A stretch of 64,000 nucleotides of DNA, taken from assembly GCF_003018255.1 (NCBI RefSeq), contig NZ_CP027440.1; one strand, written 5' to 3'. The notes under the pieces are model-generated. The model did no database searches and was not told where the DNA came from. It worked only from the letters and a program-made list of their open reading frames with translations. The position numbers and the translations under genes were made by a program. This DNA comes from Escherichia coli (GTDB taxonomy: Bacteria; Pseudomonadota; Gammaproteobacteria; Enterobacterales; Enterobacteriaceae). Below are positions 18,711 through 54,918 of the stretch, piece after piece (position 1 is the first letter of the stretch; each line of letters opens with the position of its first letter).

Positions 18711-19291
18711 CAGTTACCCAGCGTGGTAGAGACGCGTGCAGGCGTTGCCGGAGTATCCGTTGTGGTCGACGTCTGTTCTTCGTCGGAACGAATATCCGCA
18801 GCACGGATGCTTGGCAGCTTACGAATCAGCTGTTCGGCAGCACGGTCGTACATCTCTTTTACGATCATGTCTTGTTCGTTATCTTTCGCTAACGCCATTT
18901 GCGGGTTATCGAAGAACGAACGGAAGACTTTGGCGCTAATCGGGTAGATGTCACGGCCGGGGATCAACACGGTCGCATTGACCGTCATGATCATCTGATA
19001 CTCTGCTGTTTGACCGTTACGGAATACCGATGCGGTATCTTTCGCGATGCTCACTTTACCCAAACGCAGGGATGGAACGTCCTTACGCGTGGTTTCTTTA
19101 TCAAGCAACTCGACACCATTTAGACGTAACTGGTTACGCACCGCACGGCTTAATGGCCCGTTCGGATCGCCTGAGTCCAGGATCATGACCTTCATAGTGG
19201 AAGGAACCTGCGTGGTATCACGCAGATGCCAGCCACACCCGGCGGTGATTAACACCGCCAGAGATAACAACAATGTTGCCAGATATCGCAC
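18710..19291 (-). CDS. lptE: LPS assembly lipoprotein LptE (193 aa)
   Basis: ORF track; lipobox LITAGCG; 1-nt overlap with holA start. Confidence 0.93.
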
Positions 19292-19305
19292 GCTTCCTCC
19301 CGCGC

Positions 19306-21888
19306 TTAGCCAACGACCAGATTGAGGAGTTTACCGGGTACGTAAATCACTTTACGCACGGTAACGCCATCAAGATATTTTGCTACCAGATGTTCCTGGC
19401 CAGCACGTTCGCGAACCTGTTCTTCCGTTGCGTCCACCGGAACGGTGATTTTTGCACGGACTTTACCGTTAACCTGCACCACGACCAGCGTGGAGTCTTC
19501 CACCATCGCTTTTTCGTCAGCAACCGGCCACGGCGCGTTGTCGATATCGCCTTCGCCTTTCAGTTCCTGCCACAGCGTGAAGCAGATGTGCGGGGTGAAC
19601 GGGTTAAGCATACGGACAACGGCCAGCAGTGCTTCCTGCATCAGGGCGCGGTCCTGCTCGCCATCGGTCGGTGCTTTCGCCAGTTTGTTCATCAGCTCCA
19701 TAATCGCCGCAATTGCGGTGTTGAAGGTCTGACGACGGCCGATATCATCGGTCACTTTAGCGATCGTTTTATGCACATCGCGACGCAGCGCTTTCTGATC
19801 TTCAGTCAGCGCATCAACGTTCAGTGCCGCAACATCACCTTTCGCTGTGTGCTCGTAAACCAGTTTCCAGACACGTTTCAGGAAGCGGTTAGCCCCTTCC
19901 ACGCCGGATTCCTGCCATTCGAGAGTCATATCAGCCGGAGAAGCAAACATCATAAACAGACGAACGGTGTCCGCGCCGTAACGTTCAACCATCACCTGCG
20001 GGTCGATACCGTTGTTCTTCGACTTGGACATTTTGCTCATGCCGGTATAAACCAGTTCATGGCCTGCCGCATCTTTCGCTTTCACGATACGGCCTTTCTC
20101 GTCACGTTCAACGATAGCATCAACCGGGGAAACCCAGTTACGTTCGCCGTTTTCGCCAACATAGTAGAAGGCATCTGCCAGCACCATACCCTGACACAGC
20201 AACTGTTTTGCTGGTTCGTCAGAGTTCACCATGCCTGCATCACGCATCAGTTTGTGGAAGAAGCGGAAGTAGAGCAGGTGCATAATGGCGTGTTCGATAC
20301 CACCAATGTAGATATCCACCGGCAGCCAGTAGTTAGCCGCTTTGGAATCCAGCATACCTTCTTTGTACTCCGGGCAAGTGTAGCGCGCATAGTACCAGGA
20401 GGACTCCATAAAGGTGTCGAAAGTGTCGGTTTCACGCAGCGCTGGCATACCGTTAACGGTAGTTTTTGCCCACTCCGGATCTGCTTTAATCGGGCTGGTA
20501 ATGCCGTCCATCACCACATCTTCCGGCAGGATCACCGGCAGCTGGTCGTCCGGGGTCGGCATTACGGTACCGTCTTCCAGCGTCACCATCGGAATCGGCG
20601 CGCCCCAGTAACGCTGACGAGAAACACCCCAGTCGCGCAGGCGGTAGTTCACTTTACGCTCGCCAACGCCCATCGCAGTCAGTTTATCGGCGATGGCGTT
20701 GAAGGCCGCTTCATGGTCAAGACCGTTGAACTCGCCAGAGTTGAACAGCACGCCTTTTTCAGTCAGGGCTTGCTGAGAAAGATCTGGCTCAGAGCCGTCA
20801 GCTGCCAGGATAACCGGTTTGATGTTCAGGCCGTATTTAGAGGCAAACTCGTAGTCGCGCTGGTCGTGACCCGGAACCGCCATAACTGCGCCCGTGCCGT
20901 ATTCCATCAATACGAAGTTTGCTGCCCAAACGGGAATTTCTTCGCCCGTTAATGGGTGAACCGCTTTAAAGCCAGTATCGACGCCTTTTTTCTCCATCGT
21001 CGCCATTTCAGCTTCGGCAACTTTGGTGTTACGGCATTCGTCAATAAAGGCGGCCAGTTCAGGATTATTTTCCGCCGCTTTCTGTGCCAGCGGATGACCC
21101 GCAGCCACCGCCAGGTAGGTACAACCCATAAAGGTGTCCGGGCGGGTAGTGTAAACGGTCAGCGTGTTGTCATAGTCGTTAACGTTGAAGGTGATTTCCA
21201 CGCCTTCGGAACGACCGATCCAGTTACGCTGCATGGTTTTAACGGTGTCTGGCCAGTGATCCAGTTTATCCAGATCGTTGAGCAGCTCGTCAGCGTAAGC
21301 GGTGATTTTGATAAACCATTGCGGGATCTCTTTACGCTCAACTTTGGTATCGCAGCGCCAGCAGCAGCCGTCGATAACTTGTTCGTTCGCCAGTACGGTC
21401 TGGTCGTTCGGGCACCAGTTGACTGCAGAAGTCTTCTTATATACCAGGCCTTTTTTATACAGCTCGGTGAAGAATTTCTGTTCCCAACGGTAGTATTCCG
21501 GCGTACAGGTTGCCAGCTCGCGGCTCCAGTCATAACCAAAGCCCAGCATTTTGAGCTGGTTTTTCATGTACGCGATGTTGTCGTACGTCCACGGTGCCGG
21601 TGCGGTGTTGTTTTTCACCGCCGCGCCTTCCGCAGGCAGACCAAACGCGTCCCAGCCGATCGGCTGCAGGACGTTTTTGCCCAGCATACGCTGGTAGCGG
21701 GCGATCACGTCACCGATGGTGTAGTTACGTACGTGGCCCATGTGTAGTCGACCAGAAGGATAGGGAAGCATAGACAGGCAGTAATACTTCTCTTTGCTCT
21801 CGTCTTCGGTTACTTCAAATGTGCGCTTCTCATCCCAATGAAGCTGTACTTTGGATTCTATCTCTTCCGGGCGGTATTGCTCTTGCAT
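19306..21888 (-). CDS. leuS: leucyl-tRNA synthetase LeuS (860 aa)
   Basis: Track ORF is N-extended (907 aa); known start [11 protein letters not shown] at 21888; HMGH and KMSKS motifs present. Confidence 0.95.
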
Positions 21889-25842: not shown

Positions 25843-25854
25843 AAATCTACTCCA

Positions 25855-25889
25855 GAAAAAAGAGGGTAGCAGCGTTAACTGCTACCCTC
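25855..25889 (-). terminator. intrinsic terminator in the gltI-gltJ spacer (SroC 3' end)
   Basis: 11-bp stem gagggtagcag / ctgctaccctc (25862-25889), loop cgttaa, U6 on the minus strand (plus A-run 25856-25861) running into the gltJ SD. Confidence 0.8.
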
Positions 25890-26015
25890 GAAGATTGTTA
25901 CCCAGCGTATTGCGGTTTTCAGGCCCGATGGGGAACGACCACCAGGCGTATAGTCTGTCCGTGCTACGTAACAATCGAGAGGGCTGGAATTTCCGCCCCT
26001 GGTTCTTGTAATTAG
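25855..26015 (-). ncRNA. sroC: SroC sRNA region (processed from the gltI-gltJ spacer); ends approximate
   Basis: gltI-gltJ spacer ending in a minus-strand intrinsic terminator; SroC is known to derive from this spacer. Confidence 0.55.
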
Positions 26016-26920
26016 TTCAGTGCCTTGTCATTCGGTTCTTTGAACAGTGCTTTCATTTCGTCTGACAGTTCGAAATTCATGTTCAGGTTTTTCGGCGGAA
26101 TTGGATTTTTGAACCACTTATCAAACCATTTTTCCGCTTCACCGGAGGTCTGCACCTGAGCGATGGTATCATCCATCAGCTTTTTGAACTGCGGATCGTC
26201 TTTACGCAACATGCAACCATAGGCTTCCTGAGACTGCGGCTTGCCGACGATTTCCCAGTTGTCTGGTTTCTTCGCTTTCGCACGTTCACCGGCCAGCAGA
26301 GCATCATCCATCATAAAGGCAACGGCACGACCGCTTTCCAGGGTACGGAAAGAGTCACCGTGATCTTTGGCGCTGATGATGCGCATATTCATTTTTTGCT
26401 CTTCATTCAGTTTGTTGAGCAAAACTTCAGAGGTGGTGCCGGAAGTGACGACTACGGCTTTGCCTTTCAGGTCGGCAAAATCTTTGATATCGCCGCCCTT
26501 TTTGGTCAGCAGGCGCGTACCGACCACGAAAATAGTGTCAGAGAAAGCCGCCTGTTTTTGGCGTTCGGCATTGTTGGTGGTAGAACCGCATTCAAAATCG
26601 AAAGTGCCGTTTTGCAGCAGTGGAATACGGTTTTGTGAGGTGATCGGAATCAATTTCACCTGTAAGTCTGGTTTGTTGAGTTTCTTTTTCACTGCTTCAA
26701 CAATGGCGTTGGAGTAATCCTGCGAGTAGCCCACCACTTTTTGCTGATTGTCGTAATAAGAGAAAGGTACTGAAGATTCACGGTGACCGACGACAATCAC
26801 GCCGTTTTTGGCGATTTTGTCCAGCGTACTGCCTGCTGCCGGGGCGGCGTCATCTGCCTGTGCCAGTCCTGCGGAAAGCGCCAGGGCCAGGATTGCTGTG
26901 GCAGGTTTACGTAATTGCAT
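26012..26920 (-). CDS. gltI: glutamate/aspartate periplasmic binding protein GltI (302 aa)
   Basis: Track ORF is N-extended; known start MQLRKPATAILALALSAGLAQA at 26920 with SD AAGGAG. Confidence 0.93.
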   Translation of the reverse strand: MQLRKPATAILALALSAGLAQADDAAPAAGSTLDKIAKNGVIVVGHRESSVPFSYYDNQQKVVGYSQDYSNAIVEAVKKKLNKPDLQVKLIPITSQNRIPLLQNGTFDFECGSTTNNAERQKQAAFSDTIFVVGTRLLTKKGGDIKDFADLKGKAVVVTSGTTSEVLLNKLNEEQKMNMRIISAKDHGDSFRTLESGRAVAFMMDDALLAGERAKAKKPDNWEIVGKPQSQEAYGCMLRKDDPQFKKLMDDTIAQVQTSGEAEKWFDKWFKNPIPPKNLNMNFELSDEMKALFKEPNDKALN

Positions 26921-33517: not shown

Positions 33518-34942
33518 TTACGGCTGATAATAACCCACGCCAAGGTCGTTTTCTTTGCGGGTACGGGCAATCACCGATTCCGGTGTTTCTGCCACGCGCA
33601 GACCCATTTCATCTTCAGTTCGCACCACTTTACCGCGCAGAGAGTTCGGGTAGACGTCGGTAATTTCTACATCGACGAATTTACCGATCATATCCGGCGT
33701 ACCTTCGAAGTTGACGACGCGGTTATTTTCAGTACGGCCGGAAAGCTCCATGATGCTCTTACGCGATGTACCTTCTACCAGAATACGCTGGGTGGTACCG
33801 AGCATCCGGCGGCTCCATGCCATTGCTTGCTGATTGATACGTTCTTGTAGAATATACAGGCGCTGCTTCTTCTCTTCTTCCGGAACATCATCAACCATAT
33901 CGGCGGCTGGTGTACCTGGACGAGCGGAGAAGATAAAGCTGTAGCTCATGTCGAAATTGACGTCGGCAATCAGCTTCATCGTTTTCTCGAAGTCTTCGGT
34001 GGTTTCGCCAGGGAAGCCAACGATGAAGTCAGAACTGATCTGAATATCCGGACGCGCCGCACGCAGCTTACGGATGATCGCTTTGTACTCCAGCGCTGTA
34101 TGGGTACGTCCCATCAGGTTCAGAATGCGATCGGAACCGCTCTGTACCGGCAGATGCAGGAAGCTCACCAGCTCCGGCGTGTCGCGGTACACTTCGATGA
34201 TATCGTCGGTGAATTCGATCGGATGGCTGGTGGTAAAGCGAATACGATCGATCCCGTCGATCGCCGCAACCAGACGCAGCAGATCGGCAAACGATCCGGT
34301 GGTGCCGTCGTAGTTCTCACCGCGCCAGGCGTTCACGTTCTGGCCGAGCAGGTTAACTTCACGCACGCCCTGAGCAGCAAGCTGGGCAATCTCAAACAGA
34401 ATATCGTCGGACGGACGGCTTACCTCTTCACCACGGGTGTAAGGCACTACGCAGTAGGTGCAATATTTATTGCAGCCTTCCATGATGGAGACAAACGCGG
34501 TCGGCCCTTCGGCGCGCGGTTCCGGCAGACGGTCAAACTTCTCGATTTCCGGGAAGCTGATATCTACAACCGGGCTGCGGTCGCCGCGCACGGAGTTGAT
34601 CATCTCCGGCAGACGGTGCAGCGTTTGCGGCCCAAAAATAATATCGACATAGTGGGCGCGCTGGCGAATGTGCTCGCCTTCTTGCGATGCCACGCAGCCG
34701 CCGACGCCGATAATCAGGTCTGGATTCTTCTCTTTTAACAGTTTCCAGCGACCCAACTGATGGAAGACTTTTTCCTGAGCCTTCTCGCGGATTGAGCAGG
34801 TGTTCAGCAGCAGCACATCCGCTTCTTCCGCCACGTCGGTCAGTTGATAGCCGTGGGTGGCATCCAGCAGATCGGCCATCTTCGATGAATCGTACTCGTT
34901 CATCTGACAGCCCCAGGTTTTAATATGGAGTTTTTTGGTCAT
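33518..34942 (-). CDS. miaB: tRNA methylthiotransferase MiaB (474 aa)
   Basis: ORF track; radical-SAM CxxxCxxC. Confidence 0.95.
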
Positions 34943-35087: not shown

Positions 35088-36263
35088 ATGACAAATCAAC
35101 CAACGGAAATTGCCATTGTCGGCGGAGGAATGGTCGGCGGCGCACTGGCGCTGGGACTGGCTCAGCACGGATTTTCGGTAATGGTTATCGAACATGCCCA
35201 ACCTGCACCGTTTGTCGCTGACAGCCAGCCGGACGTGCGGATCTCGGCGATTAGTGCGGCTTCGGTATCATTGCTTAAAGGGTTAGGGGTCTGGGATGCA
35301 GTACAGGCTATGCGTTGCCATCCTTACCGCAGACTGGAAACGTGGGAGTGGGAAACGGCGCATGTGGTGTTTGACGCCGCTGAACTTAAGCTACCGTTGC
35401 TTGGCTACATGGTGGAAAACACTGTCCTGCAACAGGCGTTGTGGCAGGCGCTGGAAGCGCATCCGAAAGTAACGTTACGTGTGCCAACCTCGCTGATTGC
35501 ACTGCATCGCCATAATGATCTTCAGGAGCTGGAACTGAAGGGCGGTGAAACGATCCTCGCGAAGCTGGTGATTGGTGCCGACGGCGCAAATTCGCAGGTG
35601 CGACAGATGGCGGGAATTGGCGTTCATGCCTGGCAGTATGCGCAGTCGTGTATGTTGATTAGCGTACAGTGTGAGAACGATCCCGGCGACAGCACCTGGC
35701 AGCAATTTACCCCGGACGGACCGCGTGCGTTTCTGCCGTTGTTTGATAACTGGGCATCGCTGGTGTGGTATGACTCTCCGGCGCGCATTCGCCAGTTGCA
35801 GAATATGAATATGGCGCAGCTACAGGCGGAAATCGCGAAGCATTTCCCGTCGCGTCTGGGTTACGTGACACCGCTTGCCGCTGGTGCGTTTCCGCTGATA
35901 CGTCGCCATGCGTTGCAGTATGTGCAACCAGGGCTTGCTCTGGTGGGCGATGCCGCGCATACCATCCATCCGCTGGCGGGGCAGGGGGTGAATCTTGGTT
36001 ATCGTGATGTCGATGCCCTGATTGACGTTCTGGTGAACGCCCGCAGCTACGGCGAAGCGTGGGCCAGTTATCCTGTGCTCAAGCGTTACCAGATGCGGCG
36101 TATGGCGGATAACTTTATGATGCAAAGTGGTATGGATCTGTTTTATGCCGGATTCAGCAATAATCTGCCACCGCTGCGTTTTGTGCGTAATCTTGGTTTG
36201 ATGGCGGCGGAGCGTGCTGGCGTGTTGAAACGTAAGGCGCTGAAATATGCGTTAGGGTTGTAG
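35088..36263 (+). CDS. ubiF: ubiquinone biosynthesis hydroxylase UbiF (391 aa)
   Basis: Track ORF starts MTMTNQ; known start MTNQPTEIAIVGGGMVGG (FAD-binding GxGxxG). Confidence 0.9.
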   Translation: MTNQPTEIAIVGGGMVGGALALGLAQHGFSVMVIEHAQPAPFVADSQPDVRISAISAASVSLLKGLGVWDAVQAMRCHPYRRLETWEWETAHVVFDAAELKLPLLGYMVENTVLQQALWQALEAHPKVTLRVPTSLIALHRHNDLQELELKGGETILAKLVIGADGANSQVRQMAGIGVHAWQYAQSCMLISVQCENDPGDSTWQQFTPDGPRAFLPLFDNWASLVWYDSPARIRQLQNMNMAQLQAEIAKHFPSRLGYVTPLAAGAFPLIRRHALQYVQPGLALVGDAAHTIHPLAGQGVNLGYRDVDALIDVLVNARSYGEAWASYPVLKRYQMRRMADNFMMQSGMDLFYAGFSNNLPPLRFVRNLGLMAAERAGVLKRKALKYALGL

Positions 36264-36293
36264 CCTCACAACATTGCTGGATGCATGCCAACC

Positions 36294-36364
36294 GTAGGTC
36301 GGATAAGACGCGGCAGCGTCGCATCCGACTTTGAAGGATAAGACGAGTCAACATCGCATTCGGC
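36294..36364. repeat. REP/BIME-like cluster downstream of ubiF
   Basis: gtaggtcggataagacgcggcagcgtcgcatccgac (36294-36329) resembles the REP consensus; second partial unit 36336-36364. Confidence 0.7.
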
Positions 36365-36385
36365 ATTGAATATACGCAGAAAAGC

Positions 36386-36412
36386 AAAAAGCTCGCCGAG
36401 GCGAGCTTTTTT
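36386..36412. terminator. intrinsic terminator at the tRNA operon 3' end, convergent with ubiF
   Basis: agctcgcc (36390-36397) gag ggcgagct (36401-36408), T6 on plus and U-tract on minus. Confidence 0.8.
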
Positions 36413-36416
36413 AATG

Positions 36417-36491
36417 TGGCTGGGGTACGAGGATTCGAACCTCGGAATGCCGGAATCAGAATCCGGTGCCTTACCGCTTGGCGATACCCCA
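36417..36491 (-). tRNA. glnX: tRNA-Gln (anticodon CUG), 75 nt
   Basis: Full match to the tRNA-Gln cloverleaf with CCA end; anticodon loop UUCUGAU. Confidence 0.95.
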
Positions 36492-36528
36492 ACTGGGTGC
36501 ACTTACAAGGTAAGCGTCTTGAATAAAT

Positions 36529-36603
36529 TGGCTGGGGTACGAGGATTCGAACCTCGGAATGCCGGAATCAGAATCCGGTGCCTTACCGCTTGGCGATACC
36601 CCA
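36529..36603 (-). tRNA. glnV: tRNA-Gln (anticodon CUG), 75 nt
   Basis: Identical copy of the preceding tRNA-Gln(CUG). Confidence 0.95.
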
Positions 36604-36651
36604 ACAAATTGGTTTTTGAATTTGCCGAACATATTCGACACATTCAGAATT

Positions 36652-36728
36652 TGGTGGCTACGACGGGATTCGAACCTGTGACCCCATCATTATGAGTGAT
36701 GTGCTCTAACCAACTGAGCTACGTAGCC
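36652..36728 (-). tRNA. metU: tRNA-Met elongator (anticodon CAU), 77 nt
   Basis: Match to GGCUACGUAGCUCAGUUGGUUAGAGC...CCA, anticodon loop CUCAUAA. Confidence 0.95.
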
Positions 36729-36743
36729 AGATTGTTTCTTCGA

Positions 36744-36818
36744 TGGCTGGGGTACCTGGATTCGAACCAGGGAATGCCGGTATCAAAAACCGGTGCCTTA
36801 CCGCTTGGCGATACCCCA
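36744..36818 (-). tRNA. glnW: tRNA-Gln (anticodon UUG), 75 nt
   Basis: tRNA-Gln body with anticodon loop UUUUGAU. Confidence 0.95.
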
Positions 36819-36852
36819 ATAACCGGGCGGTGAACCGCTTATTCGAAGAATA

Positions 36853-36927
36853 TGGCTGGGGTACCTGGATTCGAACCAGGGAATGCCGGTATCAAAAACC
36901 GGTGCCTTACCGCTTGGCGATACCCCA
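36853..36927 (-). tRNA. glnU: tRNA-Gln (anticodon UUG), 75 nt
   Basis: Identical copy of the preceding tRNA-Gln(UUG). Confidence 0.95.
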
Positions 36928-36950
36928 TCCGTACAACGCTTTCTGGTGAA

Positions 36951-37035
36951 TGGTGCGGGAGGCGAGACTTGAACTCGCACACCTTGCGGCGCCAGAACCT
37001 AAATCTGGTGCGTCTACCAATTTCGCCACTCCCGC
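36951..37035 (-). tRNA. leuW: tRNA-Leu (anticodon UAG), 85 nt
   Basis: Long-variable-arm class II tRNA, anticodon loop AUUUAGG, CCA end. Confidence 0.95.
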
Positions 37036-37043
37036 AAAAAAGA

Positions 37044-37120
37044 TGGTGGCTACGACGGGATTCGAACCTGTGACCCCATCATTATGAGTGATGTGCTCTA
37101 ACCAACTGAGCTACGTAGCC
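37044..37120 (-). tRNA. metT: tRNA-Met elongator (anticodon CAU), 77 nt
   Basis: Identical to metU; first tRNA of the operon. Confidence 0.95.
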
Positions 37121-37153
37121 ATCTTTTTTTTCGCGATACCTTATCGGCGTTGC

Positions 37154-37195
37154 GGGGCGCATTATGCGTATAGAGCCTTGCAGCGTCAACCTCTT
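37154..37195 (-). promoter_or_regulatory. candidate sigma70 promoter of the metT tRNA operon
   Basis: Minus-strand -35 TTGACG (37184-37189), 17-nt spacer, -10 CATAAT (37161-37166), GC-rich discriminator GCGCCCCGC, A/T-rich upstream. Confidence 0.55.
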
Positions 37196-37465
37196 TTTCA
37201 AGGAAAATTGCTCGAAAGTGACTGTTTGGTTAGGTTGCGAACAGCATGGCGCTATATTCGTCAATTATTGTTTACTTTGTGTTTTTTCCCCACCCTACAG
37301 CCATTCTTTTGTCATACAGGATGAAATTCGGAATTCAACAATAGTGGTGGGAAATTAATCTATGAAATACTGGCCTACAGTAATGAGTTGTCAAACAGCG
37401 ATGTGGCAAACCCGGAACATTTCCTTACTGCATATCAGAATCAACAAGCGCCCCAGTAACTGAAA

Positions 37466-37490
37466 TTGCCCCGGATTTCTCCGGGGCAAT
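37466..37490 (-). terminator. terminator-like hairpin just downstream of asnB
   Basis: gccccgga (37468-37475) tttc tccggggc (37480-37487); flanking U-tract is weak. Confidence 0.55.
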
Positions 37491-37500
37491 ATTACACGTC

Positions 37501-39165
37501 TTATTTATATGCCGACTGGTGAACGCCAACCGCGCGACCAGACGGATCGTCCATTTTCTTGAACGCTTCATCCCACTCAATCGCTTTAGCGGAAGAACAA
37601 GCGACGGAAGGACCGCCCGGCACGCACTCAGCGGCGCTCGGAAGCGGGAACAATTCTTCAAAGATCTCCCGGTACAGATACGCTTCTTTTGAGGTCGGCG
37701 TGTTGTACGGGAAGCGGAAGCGGGCAGTTTCCAGCTGTTGATCAGACACCTGCTGCGCTGCCACTTCTTTCAGGGTGTCGATCCAACTGTAACCGACGCC
37801 ATCGGAGAACTGCTCTTTTTGCCGCCAGGCCACGCTTGCAGGCAGATACGCTTCAAAACATTCACGCAGGATGTGTTTTTCCATTTTGCCGTTACCGCAC
37901 ATTTTATCCTGTGGGTTAATGCGCATCGCCACATCAAGGAATTTTTTGTCGAGGAACGGAACGCGTGCTTCCACGCCCCAGGCTGACATCGCTTTGTTGG
38001 CACGCGCGCAGTCATACATATGCAGGGCCAGCAGTTTACGCACCGTCTCTTCATGCAACTCTTTAGCGTTCGGCGCTTTGTGGAAGTATAGATAACCGCC
38101 AAACACTTCGTCAGAACCTTCACCGGACAGCACCATTTTAATGCCCATCGCCTTGATCTTACGCGACATTAAATACATCGGTGTTGAAGCGCGAATAGTG
38201 GTCACATCATAAGTTTCGATGTGGTAAATCACGTCGCGGATGGCATCCAGACCTTCCTGTACAGTGAAGTGAATTTCGTGATGCACCGTGCCCAGATGGT
38301 TTGCCACTTCCTGGGCTGCTTTCAGATCCGGTGAGCCCGGCAGACCTACAGCAAAGGAGTGCAACTGCGGCCACCAGGCTTCAGAGCGTTCCTGATCTTC
38401 CACGCGACGGGCGGCGTATTTCTTGGTGATAGCGGAAATAATTGAGGAATCCAGACCACCAGAAAGCAGCACACCGTAAGGCACATCAGACATCAGATGG
38501 CTTTTAACGGAATCTTCCAGTGCCTGACGCAGCTCGTTTTTGTCGGTCACGTTATCTTTCACCGCATCGTAGTCGAACCAGTCGCGATGATAATAAGAAC
38601 GGATTTCGCCGTCCTGACTCCACAAATAGCTCCCCGCCGGAAACTCTTTAATCGTGCGGCAAACTGGCACGAGGGCTTTCATTTCTGAGGCCACATACAG
38701 CTGACCGTGTTCGTCATAGCCCATATACAGTGGGATGATCCCCAGATGGTCGCGACCAATCAGATATGCATCTTTTTCGCTGTCGTACAGGGCAAAGGCA
38801 AACATGCCCTGCAAGTCGTCGAGAAATTCCGGCCCTTTTTCCTGATACAGCGCGAGGATCACTTCACAGTCAGACCCGGTCTGGAACTGGTAACGATCGC
38901 CATATTCAGCGCGCAATGCCTGGTGGTTGTAGATTTCACCGTTTACTGCCAGCACATGAGTTTTTTGTTGGTTGTAGAGAGGTTGCGCCCCCGCGTTAAC
39001 GTCAACAATTGACAGACGTTCGTGGGCGAGGATGGCGTTATCGCTGGCATAAATACCGGACCAGTCCGGGCCACGATGACGCATCAGGCGTGACAGCTCG
39101 AGTGCTTTCTTACGCAGCTCAACTGCGTCTGTTTTGATATCGAATACGCCAAAAATTGAACACAT
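37501..39165 (-). CDS. asnB: asparagine synthetase B (554 aa)
   Basis: ORF track; N-terminal MCSIFGV (Cys2 glutaminase nucleophile). Confidence 0.96.
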   Translation of the reverse strand: MCSIFGVFDIKTDAVELRKKALELSRLMRHRGPDWSGIYASDNAILAHERLSIVDVNAGAQPLYNQQKTHVLAVNGEIYNHQALRAEYGDRYQFQTGSDCEVILALYQEKGPEFLDDLQGMFAFALYDSEKDAYLIGRDHLGIIPLYMGYDEHGQLYVASEMKALVPVCRTIKEFPAGSYLWSQDGEIRSYYHRDWFDYDAVKDNVTDKNELRQALEDSVKSHLMSDVPYGVLLSGGLDSSIISAITKKYAARRVEDQERSEAWWPQLHSFAVGLPGSPDLKAAQEVANHLGTVHHEIHFTVQEGLDAIRDVIYHIETYDVTTIRASTPMYLMSRKIKAMGIKMVLSGEGSDEVFGGYLYFHKAPNAKELHEETVRKLLALHMYDCARANKAMSAWGVEARVPFLDKKFLDVAMRINPQDKMCGNGKMEKHILRECFEAYLPASVAWRQKEQFSDGVGYSWIDTLKEVAAQQVSDQQLETARFRFPYNTPTSKEAYLYREIFEELFPLPSAAECVPGGPSVACSSAKAIEWDEAFKKMDDPSGRAVGVHQSAYK

Positions 39166-45819: not shown

Positions 45820-45939
45820 CATCAATCATCCCCATAATCTCAGTGAGATTTTCGATTTTCACTAACTAACAGTTGTCAGCCTGTCCCGCTTATAAGATCA
45901 TACGCCGTTATACGTTGTTTACGCTTTGAGGAATCCACG

Positions 45940-47604
45940 ATGAGTGAGGCAGAAGCCCGCCCGACTAACTTTATTCGTCAGATCATCGATGAAGATCTGG
46001 CCAGTGGTAAGCACACCACAGTACACACCCGTTTCCCGCCGGAGCCGAATGGCTATCTGCATATTGGCCATGCGAAATCTATCTGCCTGAACTTCGGGAT
46101 CGCCCAGGACTATAAAGGCCAGTGCAACCTGCGTTTCGACGACACTAACCCGGTAAAAGAAGATATCGAGTATGTTGAGTCGATCAAAAACGACGTTGAG
46201 TGGTTAGGTTTTCACTGGTCTGGTAACGTCCGTTACTCCTCCGATTATTTTGATCAGCTCCACGCCTATGCGATCGAACTGATCAATAAAGGCCTGGCGT
46301 ACGTTGATGAACTGACACCGGAACAGATCCGCGAATACCGCGGCACCCTGACGCAGCCGGGTAAAAACAGCCCGTACCGCGACCGCAGCGTTGAAGAGAA
46401 CCTGGCGCTGTTCGAAAAAATGCGTACCGGTAGTTTTGAAGAAGGTAAAGCCTGCCTGCGTGCGAAAATCGACATGGCGTCGCCATTTATCGTAATGCGC
46501 GATCCGGTGCTGTACCGCATTAAATTTGCTGAACACCACCAGACTGGCAACAAGTGGTGCATCTACCCGATGTACGACTTCACCCACTGCATCAGCGATG
46601 CGCTGGAAGGTATTACGCACTCTCTGTGTACGCTTGAGTTCCAGGACAACCGCCGTCTGTACGACTGGGTACTGGACAACATCACCATTCCTGTTCACCC
46701 GCGCCAGTACGAATTCTCGCGCCTGAATCTGGAATACACTGTGATGTCCAAGCGTAAGCTGAACCTGCTGGTGACCGATAAGCACGTTGAAGGCTGGGAT
46801 GACCCGCGTATGCCGACCATTTCTGGTCTGCGTCGTCGTGGTTACACTGCGGCTTCTATTCGTGAGTTCTGCAAACGCATTGGTGTGACCAAGCAGGACA
46901 ACACCATTGAGATGGCGTCACTGGAATCCTGCATCCGTGAAGATCTCAACGAAAATGCCCCGCGCGCAATGGCGGTTATCGATCCGGTGAAACTGGTTAT
47001 CGAAAACTACCAGGGCGAAGGCGAAATGGTCACCATGCCGAACCATCCGAACAAACCGGAAATGGGTAGCCGTCAGGTGCCGTTTAGCTGTGAGATTTGG
47101 ATCGATCGCGCCGATTTCCGCGAAGAAGCTAACAAGCAGTACAAACGTCTGGTGTTGGGTAAAGAAGTGCGTCTGCGTAATGCTTACGTGATTAAGGCAG
47201 AACGCGTCGAGAAAGATGCCGAAGGTAATATCACCACCATCTTCTGTACTTATGACGCCGACACCTTAAGCAAAGATCCGGCAGATGGTCGTAAAGTGAA
47301 AGGTGTTATTCACTGGGTGAGCGCGGCACATGCGCTGCCGGTTGAAATCCGTTTGTATGACCGTCTGTTCAGCGTGCCTAACCCAGGTGCTGCGGATGAT
47401 TTCCTGTCGGTGATTAACCCGGAATCGCTGGTGATCAAACAGGGTTTCGCTGAACCGTCGCTGAAAGACGCGGTAGCGGGTAAAGCATTCCAGTTTGAGC
47501 GTGAAGGTTATTTCTGCCTCGACAGCCGCCATTCCACTGCCGAAAAACCGGTATTTAACCGCACCGTAGGGCTGCGTGATACCTGGGCGAAAGTAGGCGA
47601 GTAG
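45940..47604 (+). CDS. glnS: glutaminyl-tRNA synthetase GlnS (554 aa)
   Basis: ORF track; HIGH motif (PNGYLHIGH) and VMSKR. Confidence 0.96.
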
Positions 47605-47619
47605 TTTTAAGTTCTACCA

Positions 47620-47650
47620 GGCCGGGTGAGGCATTTACGCCACATCCGGC
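47620..47650. repeat. REP element downstream of glnS
   Basis: Minus-strand gccggatgtggcgtaaatgcctcacccggcc closely matches the REP consensus. Confidence 0.7.
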
Positions 47651-47671
47651 AAGAAATATGCAAACAATCCC

Positions 47672-47699
47672 AAACGCCGCGCTCTGCGGCGTTTTTTTT
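47672..47699 (+). terminator. intrinsic terminator of glnS
   Basis: acgccgc (47674-47680) gctct gcggcgt (47686-47692) then T8. Confidence 0.8.
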
Positions 47700-48033
47700 C
47701 TGCTTTTCTTCGCGAATTAATTCCGCTTCGCAATTTATCCATAAAACAAATTTAAAATCACAAACCATAATTAAATAAAATGTAACCGTTTTCATCTTAC
47801 TGGAAATTCACGCTTTTATTCTTCTGCAAGCCTTTCAACTGCAAACTTAAGCCTTGTAACAAAAATCATCAAAATATGTGCGGTTGCTCATGTTCTTACA
47901 TTCTGGTTACAGAAAGAGATTGATAATTCGCGTCGCGAAAAATAGTCTGTTCCTGTAGTCAGCGAGACTTTTCTCAACGCTACTTTTTTAATTTTTATTT
48001 TTTTCGCTGTTCACCTTTGGTGCAGCAATTTAT

Positions 48034-48046
48034 ACGTCAAAGAGGA
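48034..48046 (+). promoter_or_regulatory. ChiX sRNA pairing site at the chiP ribosome-binding region
   Basis: ACGTCAAAGAGGA 8 nt upstream of the chiP ATG, complementary to the CCUCUUUGACG segment of ChiX as I recall it. Confidence 0.55.
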
Positions 48047-48053
48047 TTAACCC

Positions 48054-49460
48054 ATGCGTACGTTTAGTGGCAAACGTAGTACGCTGGCGCTGGCTATCGC
48101 CGGTGTTACAGCAATGTCGGGCTTTATGGCAATGCCGGAGGCTCGCGCCGAAGGATTCATCGACGATTCAACCTTAACCGGCGGTATCTATTACTGGCAG
48201 CGTGAACGCGACCGTAAAGATGTTACCGACGGCGACAAATACAAAACCAACCTTTCTCACTCCACCTGGAATGCCAACCTCGATTTTCAGTCCGGTTATG
48301 CTGCTGATATGTTCGGCCTTGATATTGCTGCGTTTACGGCGATTGAAATGGCGGAAAACGGTGACAGCTCTCACCCGAACGAAATCGCGTTTTCAAAAAG
48401 CAATAAAGCCTATGACGAAGACTGGTCCGGCGACAAAAGCGGTATAAGCCTGTATAAAGCAGCGGCCAAATTTAAATACGGTCCGGTGTGGGCGAGGGCA
48501 GGTTACATTCAGCCAACTGGTCAGACGCTGTTAGCGCCGCACTGGAGCTTTATGCCGGGTACTTATCAGGGGGCGGAAGCCGGGGCGAATTTTGATTACG
48601 GCGATGCTGGTGCGTTGAGTTTCTCCTACATGTGGACCAACGAATACAAAGCACCGTGGCATCTCGAAATGGATGAGTTTTATCAGAACGATAAAACTAC
48701 CAAAGTTGATTATCTGCACTCCATCGGTGCGAAGTACGACTTCAAAAATAACTTTGTACTGGAAGCGGCATTTGGTCAGGCGGAAGGGTATATAGATCAA
48801 TATTTTGCCAAAGCCAGCTACAAATTTGATATCGCCGGTAGCCCGTTAACCACCAGCTACCAGTTCTACGGTACGCGCGATAAAGTTGACGATCGCAGCG
48901 TCAACGACATTTACGACGGCACTGCCTGGCTGCAAGCGTTGACCTTTGGTTACCGGGCGGCTGATGTAGTGGATTTGCGTCTGGAAGGCACCTGGGTTAA
49001 AGCCGACGGTCAGCAGGGATACTTCCTGCAACGTATGACTCCAACCTACGCTTCCTCGAACGGTCGCCTGGATATCTGGTGGGATAACCGTTCTGACTTC
49101 AACGCCAACGGCGAAAAAGCGGTCTTCTTCGGTGCGATGTATGACCTGAAAAACTGGAATCTTCCAGGCTTCGCCATCGGCGCTTCCTACGTTTACGCAT
49201 GGGATGCTAAACCTGCGACCTGGCAGAGCAATCCGGATGCGTACTACGACAAAAACCGGACTATTGAAGAGTCTGCCTACAGCCTGGATGCGGTGTACAC
49301 CATTCAGGACGGTCGCGCCAAAGGCACGATGTTCAAACTGCACTTCACCGAATACGACAACCACTCCGACATCCCAAGCTGGGGCGGCGGTTACGGTAAC
49401 ATCTTCCAGGATGAGCGCGACGTGAAATTTATGGTAATCGCACCATTCACCATCTTCTGA
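48054..49460 (+). CDS. chiP: chitoporin ChiP/YbfM (468 aa)
   Basis: ORF track; signal peptide, OprD-like outer-membrane porin. Confidence 0.93.
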
Positions 49461-49509
49461 TGCCCGACGCGGCAGGTTTTGTGCCTGCCGCACATTTGAG
49501 GAATTTGCT

Positions 49510-49836
49510 ATGAAAAAACTGATTCTCATCGCCATGATGGCATCGGGGCTGGTAGCTTGTGCGCAATCAACCGCACCGCAGGAAGACAGTCGTCTGAAAG
49601 AGGCTTACAGCGCCTGTATCAACACCGCGCAAGGTTCGCCGGAAAAAATTGAAGCCTGCCAGAGCGTGTTAAACGTGCTGAAGAAAGAGAAACAACATCA
49701 GCAGTTTGCCGAGCAGGAAAGTGTCCGCGTACTGGATTATCAGCAGTGTATTCAGGCAACGCAAACCGGAAATGATCAGGCGGTGAAAGCCGATTGTGAT
49801 AAGGTCTGGCAGGAAATTCGCAGTAATAACAAATAA
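49510..49836 (+). CDS. chiQ: lipoprotein ChiQ/YbfN (108 aa)
   Basis: ORF track; lipobox LVAC. Confidence 0.9.
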   Translation: MKKLILIAMMASGLVACAQSTAPQEDSRLKEAYSACINTAQGSPEKIEACQSVLNVLKKEKQHQQFAEQESVRVLDYQQCIQATQTGNDQAVKADCDKVWQEIRSNNK

Positions 49837-49876
49837 GTGAGAGCTGTAACTCTCGCTTTTCTTATTTCCCTTGTAT

Positions 49877-49904
49877 AAAAAAGCCAACCTGCAGGTTGGC
49901 TTTT
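49877..49904. terminator. intrinsic terminator between convergent chiQ and fur
   Basis: Perfect 20-nt palindrome agccaacctgcaggttggct (49882-49901) flanked by an A-run and a T-run. Confidence 0.8.
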
Positions 49905-49919
49905 CTCGTTCAGGCTGGC

Positions 49920-50366
49920 TTATTTGCCTTCGTGCGCGTGCTCATCTTCGCGGCAATCGCCTTCGGCACAGTGACCGTAAAGATAGAGACTGTGGTTAGT
50001 CAGGCGAATGCCATGTTTTGCGGCGATTTCACGCTGACGCGCTTCGATGGAATCATCACTAAATTCGATAACCTTGCCGCAGTCGAGGCAGATCAGGTGA
50101 TCGTGGTGATGTTGCTGTGTCAGTTCAAATACGGATTTACCGCCTTCAAAATTGTGGCGGGTGACGATACCAGCATCGTCAAACTGGTTCAGTACGCGAT
50201 ATACCGTAGCCAGACCAATTTCTTCACCCATATCGATCAGACGTTTGTATAAATCTTCCGCACTGACGTGATGGTTGTCCGGCTCCTGAAGAACTTCCAG
50301 GATTTTTAAACGAGGAAGCGTTACTTTCAGGCCAGCTTTCTTTAGGGCGGTATTGTTATCAGTCAT
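49920..50366 (-). CDS. fur: ferric uptake regulator Fur (148 aa)
   Basis: ORF track; MTDNNTALKKAGLKVTLPRLKILEVL. Confidence 0.97.
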   Translation of the reverse strand: MTDNNTALKKAGLKVTLPRLKILEVLQEPDNHHVSAEDLYKRLIDMGEEIGLATVYRVLNQFDDAGIVTRHNFEGGKSVFELTQQHHHDHLICLDCGKVIEFSDDSIEARQREIAAKHGIRLTNHSLYLYGHCAEGDCREDEHAHEGK

Positions 50367-50445
50367 GCGGAATCTGTCCTGTTACTAAGCGGTTCACTTC
50401 ATTAGGAGAAGTGACAGAATTTGCTCTTGAGATAATGCGTATCAT
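50359..50445 (-). CDS. uof: uof, 28-codon leader ORF translationally coupled to fur
   Basis: MIRIISRANSVTSPNEVNRLVTGQIPHD; its stop TGA overlaps the fur ATG (ATGACTGA). Confidence 0.75.
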   Translation of the reverse strand: MIRIISRANSVTSPNEVNRLVTGQIPHD

Positions 50446-50448
50446 TAT
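50431..50448. promoter_or_regulatory. Fur-box-like palindrome overlapping the uof start
   Basis: gataatgcgtatcattat; mRNA sense ATAATGATACGCATTATC versus consensus GATAATGATAATCATTATC. Confidence 0.55.
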
Positions 50449-50624
50449 AGAATTGCCACGCCTAAATGAAAACCACAAGTCCCTGGCAAATATTGTTAAT
50501 AAAAACGTGGCACAGCTTACATTTACAACGGCAAGGCCACTTGAACACCGGGACATTGTACAGGTACAACAGCAAAAGTTACAAATTTGTAGCAATTATT
50601 TTGATTGGCATTATCTATTAATAC

Positions 50625-50646
50625 GGCGTAGACATGAGTCTACGCC
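50625..50646 (-). other. stem-loop just downstream of fldA
   Basis: ggcgtagac atga gtctacgcc, 9-bp stem, no clear U-tract. Confidence 0.5.
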
Positions 50647-50654
50647 GCATCACA

Positions 50655-51185
50655 TCAGGCATTGAGAATTTCGTCGAGATGCAGCTCTTCAGAAATTTGT
50701 TTAACCCATTTTTCTACACGTTCAGCAGTCAGTTCCGGCTGACGATCTTCGTCGATAGCCAGACCGACAAAGTGGTCATCATCAGCCAGACCTTTTGACG
50801 CTTCGAAGTGGTAGCCCGCGGTTGGCCAGTGACCAACGATAGTTGCGCCGCGCGGTTCAATGATGTCGCGGATGGTGCCTAATGCATCGCAGAAGTATTC
50901 TGCGTAATCTTCCTGGTCGCCACAACCAAACAGCGCAACCAGTTTACCATTGAAATCAATCTCTTCGAGAGTCGGGAAGAAGTCATCCCAGTCACACTGC
51001 GCTTCGCCGTAATACCAGGTTGGGATGCCCAGCAGCAGAATGTCATATGCTTCCAGATCTTCTTTGCTGCTTTTTGCAATGTCATGGACATCGGCAACGT
51101 CTTTACCAAGCTGTTTTTGAATCATTTTTGCGATATTTTCGGTATTACCGGTGTCGCTGCCGAAAAAGATGCCAGTGATAGCCAT
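50655..51185 (-). CDS. fldA: flavodoxin 1 FldA (176 aa)
   Basis: Track ORF is N-extended; known start [16 protein letters not shown] at 51185. Confidence 0.95.
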
Positions 51186-51324
51186 GAGTGAAATAACCTC
51201 TTGAAACTTATTGAAATGGGGGTGGAAAATTGCCCACGGATAAAGGCAATCATAGCAGAACAGGCAGTCTTGCGGAATCAGCAAACGAGCAGGACTGCAC
51301 ACTGTGCTACATGAAAGTGGAAAT

Positions 51325-51618
51325 TTAAACGATGCCCTGACTACGCAGCGCCGCCAGTTGCTGCATTAACATCTCTTCGATCAGCTCGCTACGGCTCATA
51401 TTGCGCGATTCCGCCAGCTCGTTCAGTGCCTCGACAGCTTCCGCGTTCAGCTTCAGTTCGACACGCTTAAGGCCACGTACTTTGTCGCGTTTTAGTTGGT
51501 TGCGTTTATTAATACGCAGCTGCTCATCGCGCGAAAGCGGATTAGTTTTCGGTCGTCCCGGTCGACGCTCGTGCGCGAACAGATCTAATGTCGTACGGTC
51601 CGTTTGTTCTTTGGCCAT
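51325..51618 (-). CDS. ybfE: YbfE (97 aa); start uncertain
   Basis: Known protein begins [14 protein letters not shown]; an in-frame ATG at 51687 would give 120 aa; neither start has a good SD. Confidence 0.7.
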
Positions 51619-51757
51619 GATCTTGGTGACTTCGGGGGAAACAATCAGCCAGGCGCCTGCCCGGATGGATAGCGCGCCATAATACATCAGCGCGATGAGT
51701 CACGCCAACGTCCACGCGCGGAAAGCGACGCGGACGCTGGGTTTTTAATCAGTTGCG

Positions 51758-52522
51758 TTAATCATTGAGATAGCGACGGATAGCGCGTAATACCGCATCC
51801 GGTTTTTCAGCATGGACCCAGTGACCCGCGCCTGCAATCACATGCGCCCGAGCCTGTGGAAATTGTGCCAGTAAATCATCACGGTACTGCTCGCTAACAT
51901 ACGGAGAATTGCCGCCAGGGATAAACAGGGTAGGATGATCCCATGCCGGGATTTTCTCCCAACCCACAATATGCGGATACTGATCCCACAATACTGGCAC
52001 GTTAAAGCGCCACTCCCCGTCAACAAAAGATTTCAACAGAAACTGAATCACCCCTTCTTCATTAAGATGCTGGCGCATTATTGCCGCTGCTTGCTGGCGT
52101 GTTTGTGCGTCTGATTCACTGACTGCGTTGATGGCCGCGAAAATCTCATCATGACGGCGAACGTGATAATCGACCGGCGCAATATCAATCGCCACCAGCT
52201 TGTCAATGCGATCGGGGGCTAGTGCAGTAAGAGCCATTACCGCTTTACCGCCCATGGAGTGACCGATAAATGTTGCTTTGTCGATCTGCTGTGCATCCAG
52301 GGTATCAACAAGATCCTGCGCCATCGCCGGGTAATTCATTACCGGATCTCTCGGTGAAAGACCGTGGTTACGCATATCAACCTGGATGATATTGTGATCG
52401 TTTACCAGATCGCGAGCCAGTACGCCAAGGTTGTCGAGGCTGCCAAACAGACCATGGACAAGAACGATGGGAGAATTATTGTGCTGGTTTTGTGCAGTTT
52501 GCGCGCGGATATTCAATTTCAT
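51758..52522 (-). CDS. ybfF: esterase YbfF (254 aa)
   Basis: ORF track; alpha/beta-hydrolase GHSMGG. Confidence 0.93.
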   Translation of the reverse strand: MKLNIRAQTAQNQHNNSPIVLVHGLFGSLDNLGVLARDLVNDHNIIQVDMRNHGLSPRDPVMNYPAMAQDLVDTLDAQQIDKATFIGHSMGGKAVMALTALAPDRIDKLVAIDIAPVDYHVRRHDEIFAAINAVSESDAQTRQQAAAIMRQHLNEEGVIQFLLKSFVDGEWRFNVPVLWDQYPHIVGWEKIPAWDHPTLFIPGGNSPYVSEQYRDDLLAQFPQARAHVIAGAGHWVHAEKPDAVLRAIRRYLND

Positions 52523-52706
52523 GGCAAAGTTCTTTTTTTCGCGTTGTCGGGTTAGGGTATTATGTTGACCATTGTGCCACAGGGCTGCAACAAATAAGGT
52601 TTATTCCGAGTTTTTCTGCAAGCCAGGCTTGACGCTATCCGCTGCCGGGATTTATTCATATACTCCTGGCGACTTGTATTCAGCTAAGACACTGCACTGG
52701 ATTAAG

Positions 52707-53252
52707 ATGAAAACGATTGAAGTTGATGATGAACTCTACAGCTATATTGCCAGCCACACTAAGCATATCGGCGAGAGCGCATCCGACATTTTACGGCGTA
52801 TGTTGAAATTTTCCGCCGCATCACAGCCTGCTGCTCCGGTGACGAAAGAGGTTCGCGTTGCGTCACCTGCTATCGTCGAAGCGAAGCCGGTCAAAACGAT
52901 TAAAGACAAGGTTCGCGCAATGCGTGAACTTCTGCTTTCGGACGAATACGCAGAGCAAAAGCGAGCGGTCAATCGCTTTATGCTGCTGTTGTCTACACTA
53001 TATTCTCTTGACGCCCAGGCGTTTGCCGAAGCAACGGAATCGTTGCACGGTCGTACACGCGTTTACTTTGCGGCAGATGAACAAACGCTGCTGAAAAATG
53101 GTAATCAGACCAAGCCGAAACATGTGCCTGGTACGCCGTATTGGGTGATCACCAACACCAACACCGGCCGTAAATGCAGCATGATCGAACACATCATGCA
53201 GTCGATGCAATTCCCGGCGGAATTGATTGAGAAGGTTTGCGGAACTATCTAA
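52707..53252 (+). CDS. seqA: replication-initiation negative modulator SeqA (181 aa)
   Basis: Track ORF is N-extended; known start [33 protein letters not shown] at 52707. Confidence 0.95.
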
Positions 53253-53277
53253 AACGTTGCAGACAAAGGACAAAGCA

Positions 53278-54918
53278 ATGGCAATCCACAATCGTGCAGG
53301 CCAACCTGCACAACAGAGTGATTTGATTAACGTCGCCCAACTGACGGCGCAATATTATGTACTGAAACCAGAAGCAGGGAATGCGGAGCACGCGGTGAAA
53401 TTCGGTACTTCCGGTCACCGTGGCAGTGCAGCGCGCCACAGCTTTAACGAGCCGCACATTCTGGCGATCGCTCAGGCAATTGCTGAAGAACGTGCGAAAA
53501 ACGGCATCACTGGCCCTTGCTATGTGGGTAAAGATACTCACGCCCTGTCCGAGCCTGCGTTCATTTCCGTACTGGAAGTGCTGGCAGCGAACGGCGTTGA
53601 TGTCATTGTGCAGGAAAACAATGGCTTCACTCCGACACCTGCCATTTCCAATGCCATTCTGGTTCACAATAAAAAAGGTGGCCCACTGGCAGACGGTATC
53701 GTGATTACACCGTCCCATAACCCGCCGGAAGATGGTGGTATCAAGTACAATCCGCCAAATGGTGGCCCGGCTGATACCAACGTCACTAAAGTGGTGGAAG
53801 ACAGAGCCAACGCACTGCTGGCTGATGGCCTGAAAGGCGTGAAGCGTATCTCCCTCGACGAAGCGATGGCATCCGGTCATGTGAAAGAGCAGGATCTGGT
53901 GCAGCCGTTTGTGGAAGGGCTGGCCGATATCGTTGATATGGCGGCGATTCAGAAAGCGGGCCTGACGCTGGGCGTTGATCCGCTGGGTGGTTCCGGTATC
54001 GAATACTGGAAGCGCATTGGCGAGTATTACAACCTCAACCTGACCATCGTTAACGATCAGGTCGATCAAACCTTCCGCTTTATGCACCTCGATAAAGACG
54101 GTGCGATCCGTATGGACTGCTCCTCCGAGTGTGCGATGGCGGGCCTGCTGGCACTGCGTGATAAGTTCGATCTGGCGTTTGCTAACGACCCGGATTATGA
54201 CCGTCACGGTATCGTCACTCCGGCAGGTTTGATGAATCCGAACCACTACCTGGCGGTGGCGATCAACTACCTGTTCCAGCATCGTCCGCAGTGGGGCAAA
54301 GATGTTGCTGTCGGTAAAACGCTGGTTTCATCTGCGATGATCGACCGTGTGGTCAATGATTTGGGCCGTAAGCTGGTAGAAGTACCGGTAGGTTTCAAAT
54401 GGTTTGTTGATGGTTTGTTCGATGGCAGCTTCGGCTTTGGCGGCGAAGAGAGTGCAGGCGCTTCCTTCCTGCGTTTCGACGGCACGCCGTGGTCCACCGA
54501 TAAAGACGGTATCATTATGTGTCTGCTGGCGGCGGAAATCACCGCTGTCACCGGTAAGAACCCGCAGGAACACTATAACGAACTGGCAAAACGCTTTGGT
54601 GCGCCGAGCTATAACCGTTTGCAGGCAGCAGCGACTTCCGCACAAAAAGCGGCGTTGTCTAAGCTGTCTCCGGAAATGGTGAGCGCCAGCACCCTGGCAG
54701 GTGACCCGATCACCGCGCGTCTGACGGCGGCACCGGGTAATGGCGCTTCTATCGGCGGTCTGAAAGTGATGACTGACAACGGCTGGTTCGCCGCGCGTCC
54801 GTCAGGCACGGAAGACGCATATAAGATCTACTGCGAAAGCTTCCTTGGTGAAGAACATCGCAAGCAGATTGAGAAAGAAGCGGTTGAGATTGTTAGCGAA
54901 GTTCTGAAAAACGCGTAA
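53278..54918 (+). CDS. pgm: phosphoglucomutase Pgm (546 aa)
   Basis: Track ORF is N-extended; known start [16 protein letters not shown]; active-site TSGHRG (TPSHNPP). Confidence 0.95.

Follow-up and report, generated by a model that had tools for sequence, protein, structure and literature searches.

The seven tRNA genes packed on the minus strand of the window (the whole 64-kb stretch of Escherichia coli DNA that was analysed) are the long-known metT-leuW-glnUW-metU-glnVX operon of E. coli, a locus that is textbook material. We are highly confident in the explanation as a whole, in which this metT operon is served by one sigma-70 promoter, made as a single transcript and processed into its tRNAs, essential to the cell, subject to stringent-type control and open to exchange between its identical copies. 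The identification rests on K-12 MG1655, which annotates the same seven genes by name and in the same order, and in which the promoter (TTGACG-17-CATAAT-GCGCCCCG) and the leader read as they do in the window. Set against the K-12 operon (b0664–b0673), the genes, their order, the anticodons, the ubiF/asnB flanks, the promoter, the leader and the terminator are all alike, and the differences are strain-level substitutions in the spacers and flanks alone. We take the metT operon to be the historical supB-E operon, reportedly first sequenced by Nakajima, Ozeki and Shimura in 1981. Gene content and operon description are already known and are no discovery of ours; what is added here is a rough census of variants over 5,426 genomes, a view of the operon backbone across species, and a measure of how well the promoter and early leader are conserved.

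The locus is close to universal in the species. A 1,101-bp query covering it matched 5,424 of 5,426 complete E. coli genomes, with a best match at least 95% identical in 5,404 records; strain 317 is 100% identical over the full 1,101 bp, and K-12 derivatives are 98.5–98.6% identical over the same 1.1 kb. Annotation of the 100%-identical strain 317 and of K-12 places the operon at a chromosomal site between ubiF and asnB, and the wider surroundings are those of the standard leuS-lnt-miaB-ubiF / asnB-nag-glnS region. Three genes for translation, leuS (~19258–21840), miaB (33518–34942) and glnS (55027–56691), all lie some 20 kb or less from this Leu/Gln tRNA operon, a closeness that may be a coincidental clustering of translation genes. 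A gene block of ~9 kb stands between nagE and glnS (window ~45828–54807; extracted segment 29529–38508) and encodes an SLC13 permease, sialidase-family, TerC-family and dihydrodipicolinate-synthase-family proteins, an alcohol dehydrogenase, a D-threonate kinase and dehydrogenase, and a DeoR regulator; nagE and glnS are presumably adjacent in K-12, and the block looks like a strain-variable accessory region. Two known RNA elements were also recognized in the window by Rfam, the sroC sRNA at the 3′ end of gltI (25854–26016, minus strand, 172.6 bits) and a cspA-type thermoregulator 5′ region (4602–5050, plus strand, 136.1 bits).

ARAGORN placed seven tRNA genes within 36417–37120, all of them on the minus strand, and detected no others in the 64-kb window, and the Rfam family RF00005 matched all seven at 57.6–71.1 bits (gathering score 29; Table 1). 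Direct string comparison demonstrates exact identity within three pairs (metT and metU, glnU and glnW, glnV and glnX), and the Gln(UUG) and Gln(CUG) genes differ from one another at 7 of 75 positions. All seven genes have an encoded CCA end. The six spacers measure 8, 23, 34, 15, 48 and 37 nt in operon order, giving repeat periods of 112 bp and 109 bp for the Gln pairs and of 392 bp from metT to metU. A preliminary description of this DNA, made from its letters, had listed seven minus-strand tRNAs with these anticodons, three pairs of identical members, spacers of 8–48 nt and, upstream, TTGACG-17-CATAAT with a GC-rich discriminator. It holds on each of these points: ARAGORN returns exactly the seven genes, the scan recovers the promoter in the place assigned to it, and the end coordinate given for the feature (37195) does include that promoter.

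Table 1. Features of the metT operon and its control regions in the window, in order of transcription.
Feature	Coordinates	Strand	Basis
Upstream block GCTGTTCGCAACCTAACCAAACAG, ~−69 to −92 from the inferred start	37222..37245	-	column conservation
A-tract GAAAAAGAG, directly upstream of the −35 hexamer	37191..37199	-	column conservation
−35 hexamer TTGACG	37184..37189	-	promoter scan; same in K-12 MG1655
−10 hexamer CATAAT	37161..37166	-	promoter scan
GC-rich discriminator GCGCCCC	37154..37160	-	conservation and likeness to tyrT
Inferred start (G 37153) and 33-nt 5′ leader	37121..37153	-	tyrT alignment and Kime primer
metT, elongator tRNA-Met(CAU)	37044..37120	-	ARAGORN, Rfam, K-12 annotation
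leuW, tRNA-Leu(UAG)	36951..37035	-	ARAGORN, Rfam, K-12 annotation
glnU, tRNA-Gln(UUG)	36853..36927	-	ARAGORN, Rfam, K-12 annotation
glnW, tRNA-Gln(UUG), identical to glnU	36744..36818	-	ARAGORN, Rfam, K-12 annotation
metU, tRNA-Met(CAU), identical to metT	36652..36728	-	ARAGORN, Rfam, K-12 annotation
glnV, tRNA-Gln(CUG)	36529..36603	-	ARAGORN, Rfam, K-12 annotation
glnX, tRNA-Gln(CUG), identical to glnV	36417..36491	-	ARAGORN, Rfam, K-12 annotation
A/U-rich stretch CAUUAAAAAAG, then intrinsic terminator (11-bp stem, 4-nt loop, U-run)	36376..36416	-	terminator scan

Read along the minus strand, the promoter runs TTGACG (37189–37184), 17 nt, CATAAT (37166–37161) and then GCGCCCCGC. Its hexamers match the consensus at 10 of 12 positions across a 17-bp spacer, and it is the sole sigma-70-like site that the promoter scan returned from 36100–37600. 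Taken as a bare pattern, such a site is no commoner than chance would give (a single one here, where shuffles average 1.9), and we therefore turned to its conservation, on which its significance rests. A scan with the metT-leuW junction, restricted to one genome per species, returned at least 120 loci, with all of the named records belonging to the Enterobacterales; the conservation set comprised the 116 usable upstream regions among the matches listed, the window itself counted in. Among these listed matches TTGACG is present in 111 of the 116 species, CATAAT in 113 and the discriminator GCGCCCCG likewise in 113, and the distance between the two hexamers is 17 bp in every one of the 116 regions; columns farther upstream are mostly 30–60% conserved.

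These data bear on the simplest objection to a dedicated promoter, namely that TTGACG-17-CATAAT is a chance match and that the tRNAs are read through from asnB or from promoters within the spacers. The shuffle mean of 1.9 sites against the single one found would accommodate such a view, as would the fact that the scan called no terminator after asnB on the minus strand. It is contradicted by the near-invariance of the hexamers, spacer length and discriminator in the 116 species among the matches listed, while the flanks drift, and by the lack of a second sigma-70-like site in the scanned interval (36100–37600) from which transcription could be supplied. It is also at odds with published experiments, in which a plasmid-borne unit with its natural promoter rescues the chromosomal deletion (PMC11480407) and both full-length and five-tRNA precursors appear on northern blots (PMC2241853). 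We consider a chance match exceedingly improbable, and proceed with TTGACG-17-CATAAT as the promoter of the operon.

Two further conserved features lie upstream of the core promoter. Conservation of the AAAAAAG columns adjoining the −35 hexamer is 90% or higher (116 species among the matches listed); the A-tract to which they belong, which we take to resemble the proximal UP consensus AAAAAARNR, looks like a candidate proximal UP element. The more distant block at −69 to −92 reaches 80–99% column conservation against 30–60% nearby (again over the 116 species among the matches listed), and may be a candidate activator region, with Fis as the activator concerned.

Transcription would begin at or next to G 37153 (equivalent to NC_000913.3 position 697166), since the tyrT transcript, which we take to start at the G directly after GCGCCCC, begins at the aligned base, and the primer from which a full metT precursor has been synthesized starts within one base of it. 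G 37153 is also where the preliminary description had proposed the start. That primer, used by Kime et al (PMC3985628), starts CGCAACGCCGATAAGGTA at window ~37154, and was paired with a reverse primer just beyond the terminator (window ~36370). The Cappable-seq supplements of PMC4782308 contain, among the entries listed, no start-site entry for 697163–697168.

Conservation continues past the discriminator into the transcribed region. The first 18 nt beyond the −10 hexamer, GCGCCCCGCAACGCCGAT, are identical in 95 of 116 species among the matches listed. It can also be observed that the first ~11 transcribed bases are conserved like the core promoter across the Enterobacterales (window 37121–37160; among the matches listed). 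The leader shows no variation in its 5′ half, which makes a covariation test of a leader hairpin impossible. A broader proposal can be framed, in which this early-leader block is a functional stable-RNA element extending beyond the discriminator (serving escape or leader handling), and/or changes in tRNA copy number tune tRNA supply; we judge it unlikely. Were it true, the GCGCCCCGCAACGCCGAT block would act, for example, on promoter escape or on handling of the leader, and gains or losses of whole Gln and Met units would match tRNA supply to codon demand.

Published work on K-12 informs on the fate of the transcript. The metT operon is transcribed there as one unit, as followed by Mohanty and Kushner in a northern analysis with nine oligonucleotide probes; the full-length transcript keeps its Rho-independent terminator only without RNase E, which cleaves the terminator away and frees the last tRNAs, the first five being separated by RNase P (PMC2241853). 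In the window, the scan finds one promoter-like site and one terminator at the locus. The terminator hairpin (36386–36411) with its U-run has a predicted folding energy of −19.1 kcal/mol (z = −4.66), and none of 200 shuffles was as stable. Among the matches listed, a hairpin with a T-run follows the last tRNA within at most 80 nt in 82 of 99 species arrays, the hairpin usually starting 4–9 nt past the CCA. The course of events that we propose for the window is one in which RNA polymerase, engaged at one sigma-70 promoter with a start at about G 37153, would read through all seven tRNAs to the hairpin terminator at 36376–36411; RNase E would first remove the terminator and split off the last tRNAs, RNase P would separate the upstream tRNAs, make all 5′ ends and remove the 33-nt leader, and exonucleases would shorten the 3′ ends as far as the encoded CCA.

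A REP-like palindromic pair (GATGCGACGCTGCCGCGTCTTATCCGACCTAC and its partner, window 36292–36356) is located between the tRNA terminator and ubiF, and PMC10100675 gives it as REP60ab, a downstream element of the metT operon. At least part of the additional BLAST places that the locus query returned per genome (median 5) is probably explained by this pair.

The metT unit is one of ten essential tRNA transcription units in K-12, a status that it owes to containing all copies of metTU, leuW, glnUW and glnVX (PMC11480407); deletion of the operon is possible only with plasmid support (PMC6265465). It is hence the sole E. coli source of elongator tRNA-Met, of tRNA-Leu(UAG) and of both tRNA-Gln species. 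One chromosome record departs from this: in CEA224S (NZ_CP166080.1, segment 3100–3135, corresponding to window 36416/37121) the leader, ending ...GAAAAAAAAGA, is joined straight to the post-glnX sequence CATTAAAAAAGCTCG..., such that exactly the seven tRNAs are absent, give or take one base; the locus query had no further reported match in that chromosome. The 134-kb plasmid of the same strain has no annotated tRNA within its first 100 kb. Given that the operon is essential, its absence from CEA224S is probably a fault of assembly or polishing. Matches to the full-length operon in PLSDB are mostly to records of 0.28–5.4 Mb (for example NZ_CP134663.1, 4.9 Mb, and CP061270.1, 1.2 Mb); these also bear chromosomal genes, asnB and ubiF among them, and we interpret them as chromosomes, or pieces of chromosome, under a wrong label. 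Two smaller PLSDB records likewise matched, one of 28.8 kb from E. coli and one of 117.6 kb from Arsenophonus.

To map duplicate loss and gain within the species, short megablast queries that covered a spacer and reached 20 nt into the tRNA at both of its ends were run against the 5,426 complete E. coli genomes. The glnV-glnX junction matched 5,267 genomes (5,300 places, at most 4 per genome), the glnU-glnW junction 5,335 genomes (5,375 places, at most 3 per genome) and the metT-leuW-glnU segment 5,413 genomes (5,435 places, at most 3 per genome). The glnV-glnX junction is therefore missing from 159 of 5,426 genomes (~2.9%) and the glnU-glnW junction from 91 (~1.7%), counts that may include assembly collapse or spacer divergence and that come from variant genomes which are not independent events. 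Junction copies beyond one per genome number a few tens, some of which may be larger segmental duplications. Synthetic single-copy junctions were tried as a direct counter of deletions (≥80% coverage) and dropped; the coverage count is meaningless because two overlapping pieces are joined in normal genomes, and rows matching in one piece were used as examples only.

Individual arrays, called with ARAGORN, illustrate both directions of change. The array of E2348/69 comprises six genes with a single Gln(CUG), and that of STEC1012 comprises eight, its three Gln(CUG) following one another at a 112-bp period. Origami2(DE3) (NZ_CP084529.1, segment 305–1401) has 11 genes in the order Met-Leu-Gln(UUG)x3-Met-Leu-Gln(UUG)-Met-Gln(CUG)x2; this is a laboratory derivative of K-12, and its pattern is that expected from unequal exchange, involving the Met copies and the Gln(UUG) copies. 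Identical tandem copies would permit unequal homologous recombination, which at times would delete or add copies, and we infer recombination of this kind as the mechanism of the whole-unit losses and gains at the metT locus.

A competing account holds that the duplicates are no consequential substrate for recombination, and that the apparent differences in copy number reflect assembly collapse or expansion, or spacer divergence that hides a junction. Junction absence was scored by megablast matches only, and a "complete" CEA224S genome lacking the whole of an essential operon points to assembly faults in the collection, both of which lend this account some substance. Several genomes, the reference E2348/69 included, nevertheless give one-piece, near-100% matches to the synthetic single-copy junctions; the gain in STEC1012 holds the exact 112-bp period; and variation of the same kind recurs in the 99 species-level arrays among the matches listed. 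Assembly artefact probably explains some of the cases but not all, and as a general explanation it is very unlikely. Our reading thus remains that identical copies are exchanged by recombination, with a qualification to the preliminary description, which had called the array a hotspot for recombinational change in copy number: variants of loss and gain do exist, as the six-, eight- and 11-gene arrays found across strains attest, but the seven-gene form is dominant and "hotspot" is an overstatement, since ~97–98% of complete E. coli genomes keep each duplicate junction. Together with the cross-species view and the measure of promoter and leader conservation, the census is of use as annotation, and as a caution about assemblies of tRNA arrays.

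The operon is established as the host of the classic supE44 amber suppressor, which published genomes of laboratory strains place in the downstream copy glnX (PMC4444293, PMC11148124). In K-12 J53 (NZ_CP070962.1, segment 1730–1804) we observe a Gln copy in the glnV position with the anticodon CUA, a supE-type amber suppressor; this tRNA gene is unannotated in RefSeq. Either transfer from one identical copy to the other or an independent origin may account for the J53 allele.

Comparison between species, using the 99 arrays complete at their 3′ end among the matches listed, informs on which parts of the operon are fixed and which vary. Met-Leu-Gln(UUG)n-Met-Gln(CUG)m is the constant backbone of these arrays, with n = 1–4 and m = 1–3. 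Among the same listed matches the E. coli form is found in 36 of the 99, a single Gln(CUG) in 29, a single Gln(UUG) in nine and three Gln(CUG) in four, with rarer forms besides. Arrays from Yersinia, Serratia, Pantoea, Photorhabdus, Proteus and Edwardsiella, among other genera, share the backbone order, promoter core and terminator position of E. coli, whereas the copy number of the tandem members differs between other Enterobacterales and E. coli.

The discriminator of the metT promoter, GCGCCCC(G), is entirely G/C and is identical to that of tyrT, a classic stringent promoter and the model of a stringently controlled, Fis-activated tRNA promoter. In stable-RNA promoters, a GC-rich discriminator goes along with stringency and with sensitivity to supercoiling (PMC8422995), and a secondary source (PMC10100675, Table 2) enters the metT operon with Fis as activator and with Lrp and ppGpp as repressors. 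From the discriminator rule, the tyrT precedent and this table we can safely infer that the metT promoter would be sensitive to ppGpp/DksA. In the mechanism that we propose, the GC-rich discriminator would give a short-lived open complex, by virtue of which output would fall as ppGpp/DksA rise and increase with growth rate; Fis bound upstream would probably assist transcription.

One could instead suppose a strong, constitutive metT promoter that does not sense ppGpp/DksA, with the discriminator kept for some other reason such as supercoiling sensitivity. The same discriminator feature does also set supercoiling sensitivity (PMC8422995), and the literature searched yielded no primary measurement of ppGpp/DksA action on the metT promoter that would speak against a ppGpp-blind promoter directly. 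Stringency and supercoiling sensitivity are, however, reported together in stable-RNA promoters (PMC8422995), the metT discriminator is that of tyrT, and ppGpp is given as a repressor of this very operon (PMC10100675, Table 2). We regard a ppGpp-blind promoter as improbable, and favor stringent-type control of the metT operon, which is also how the preliminary description read this promoter.

The closest parallel to this control region is that of tyrT (tyrTV). Alignment with K-12 tyrT reveals that ATGCGCCCCGC is common to both, spanning the end of the −10 hexamer through the start site, and that CCGATAAGG is common to the two early leaders a few bases after ATGCGCCCCGC; each of the two promoters, moreover, drives a tRNA operon with duplicated members. 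The likeness is confined to this region, in that the tyrT hexamers (TTTACA / TATGAT) are unlike those of metT, and the upstream sequence and the tRNAs differ too. Regulation has been measured directly for tyrT (cited in PMC8422995), whereas for metT a secondary listing is what was found. A second point of reference is the argX-hisR-leuT-proM operon, which like metT is a polycistronic tRNA operon, and whose promoter (pArgX) is ppGpp-inhibited according to PMC5137449. Both operons are essential (PMC11480407). Unlike the metT operon, argX-hisR-leuT-proM has no duplicated members, and its processing is begun by RNase E, whereas that of the metT operon is mainly RNase P-dependent (PMC2241853).
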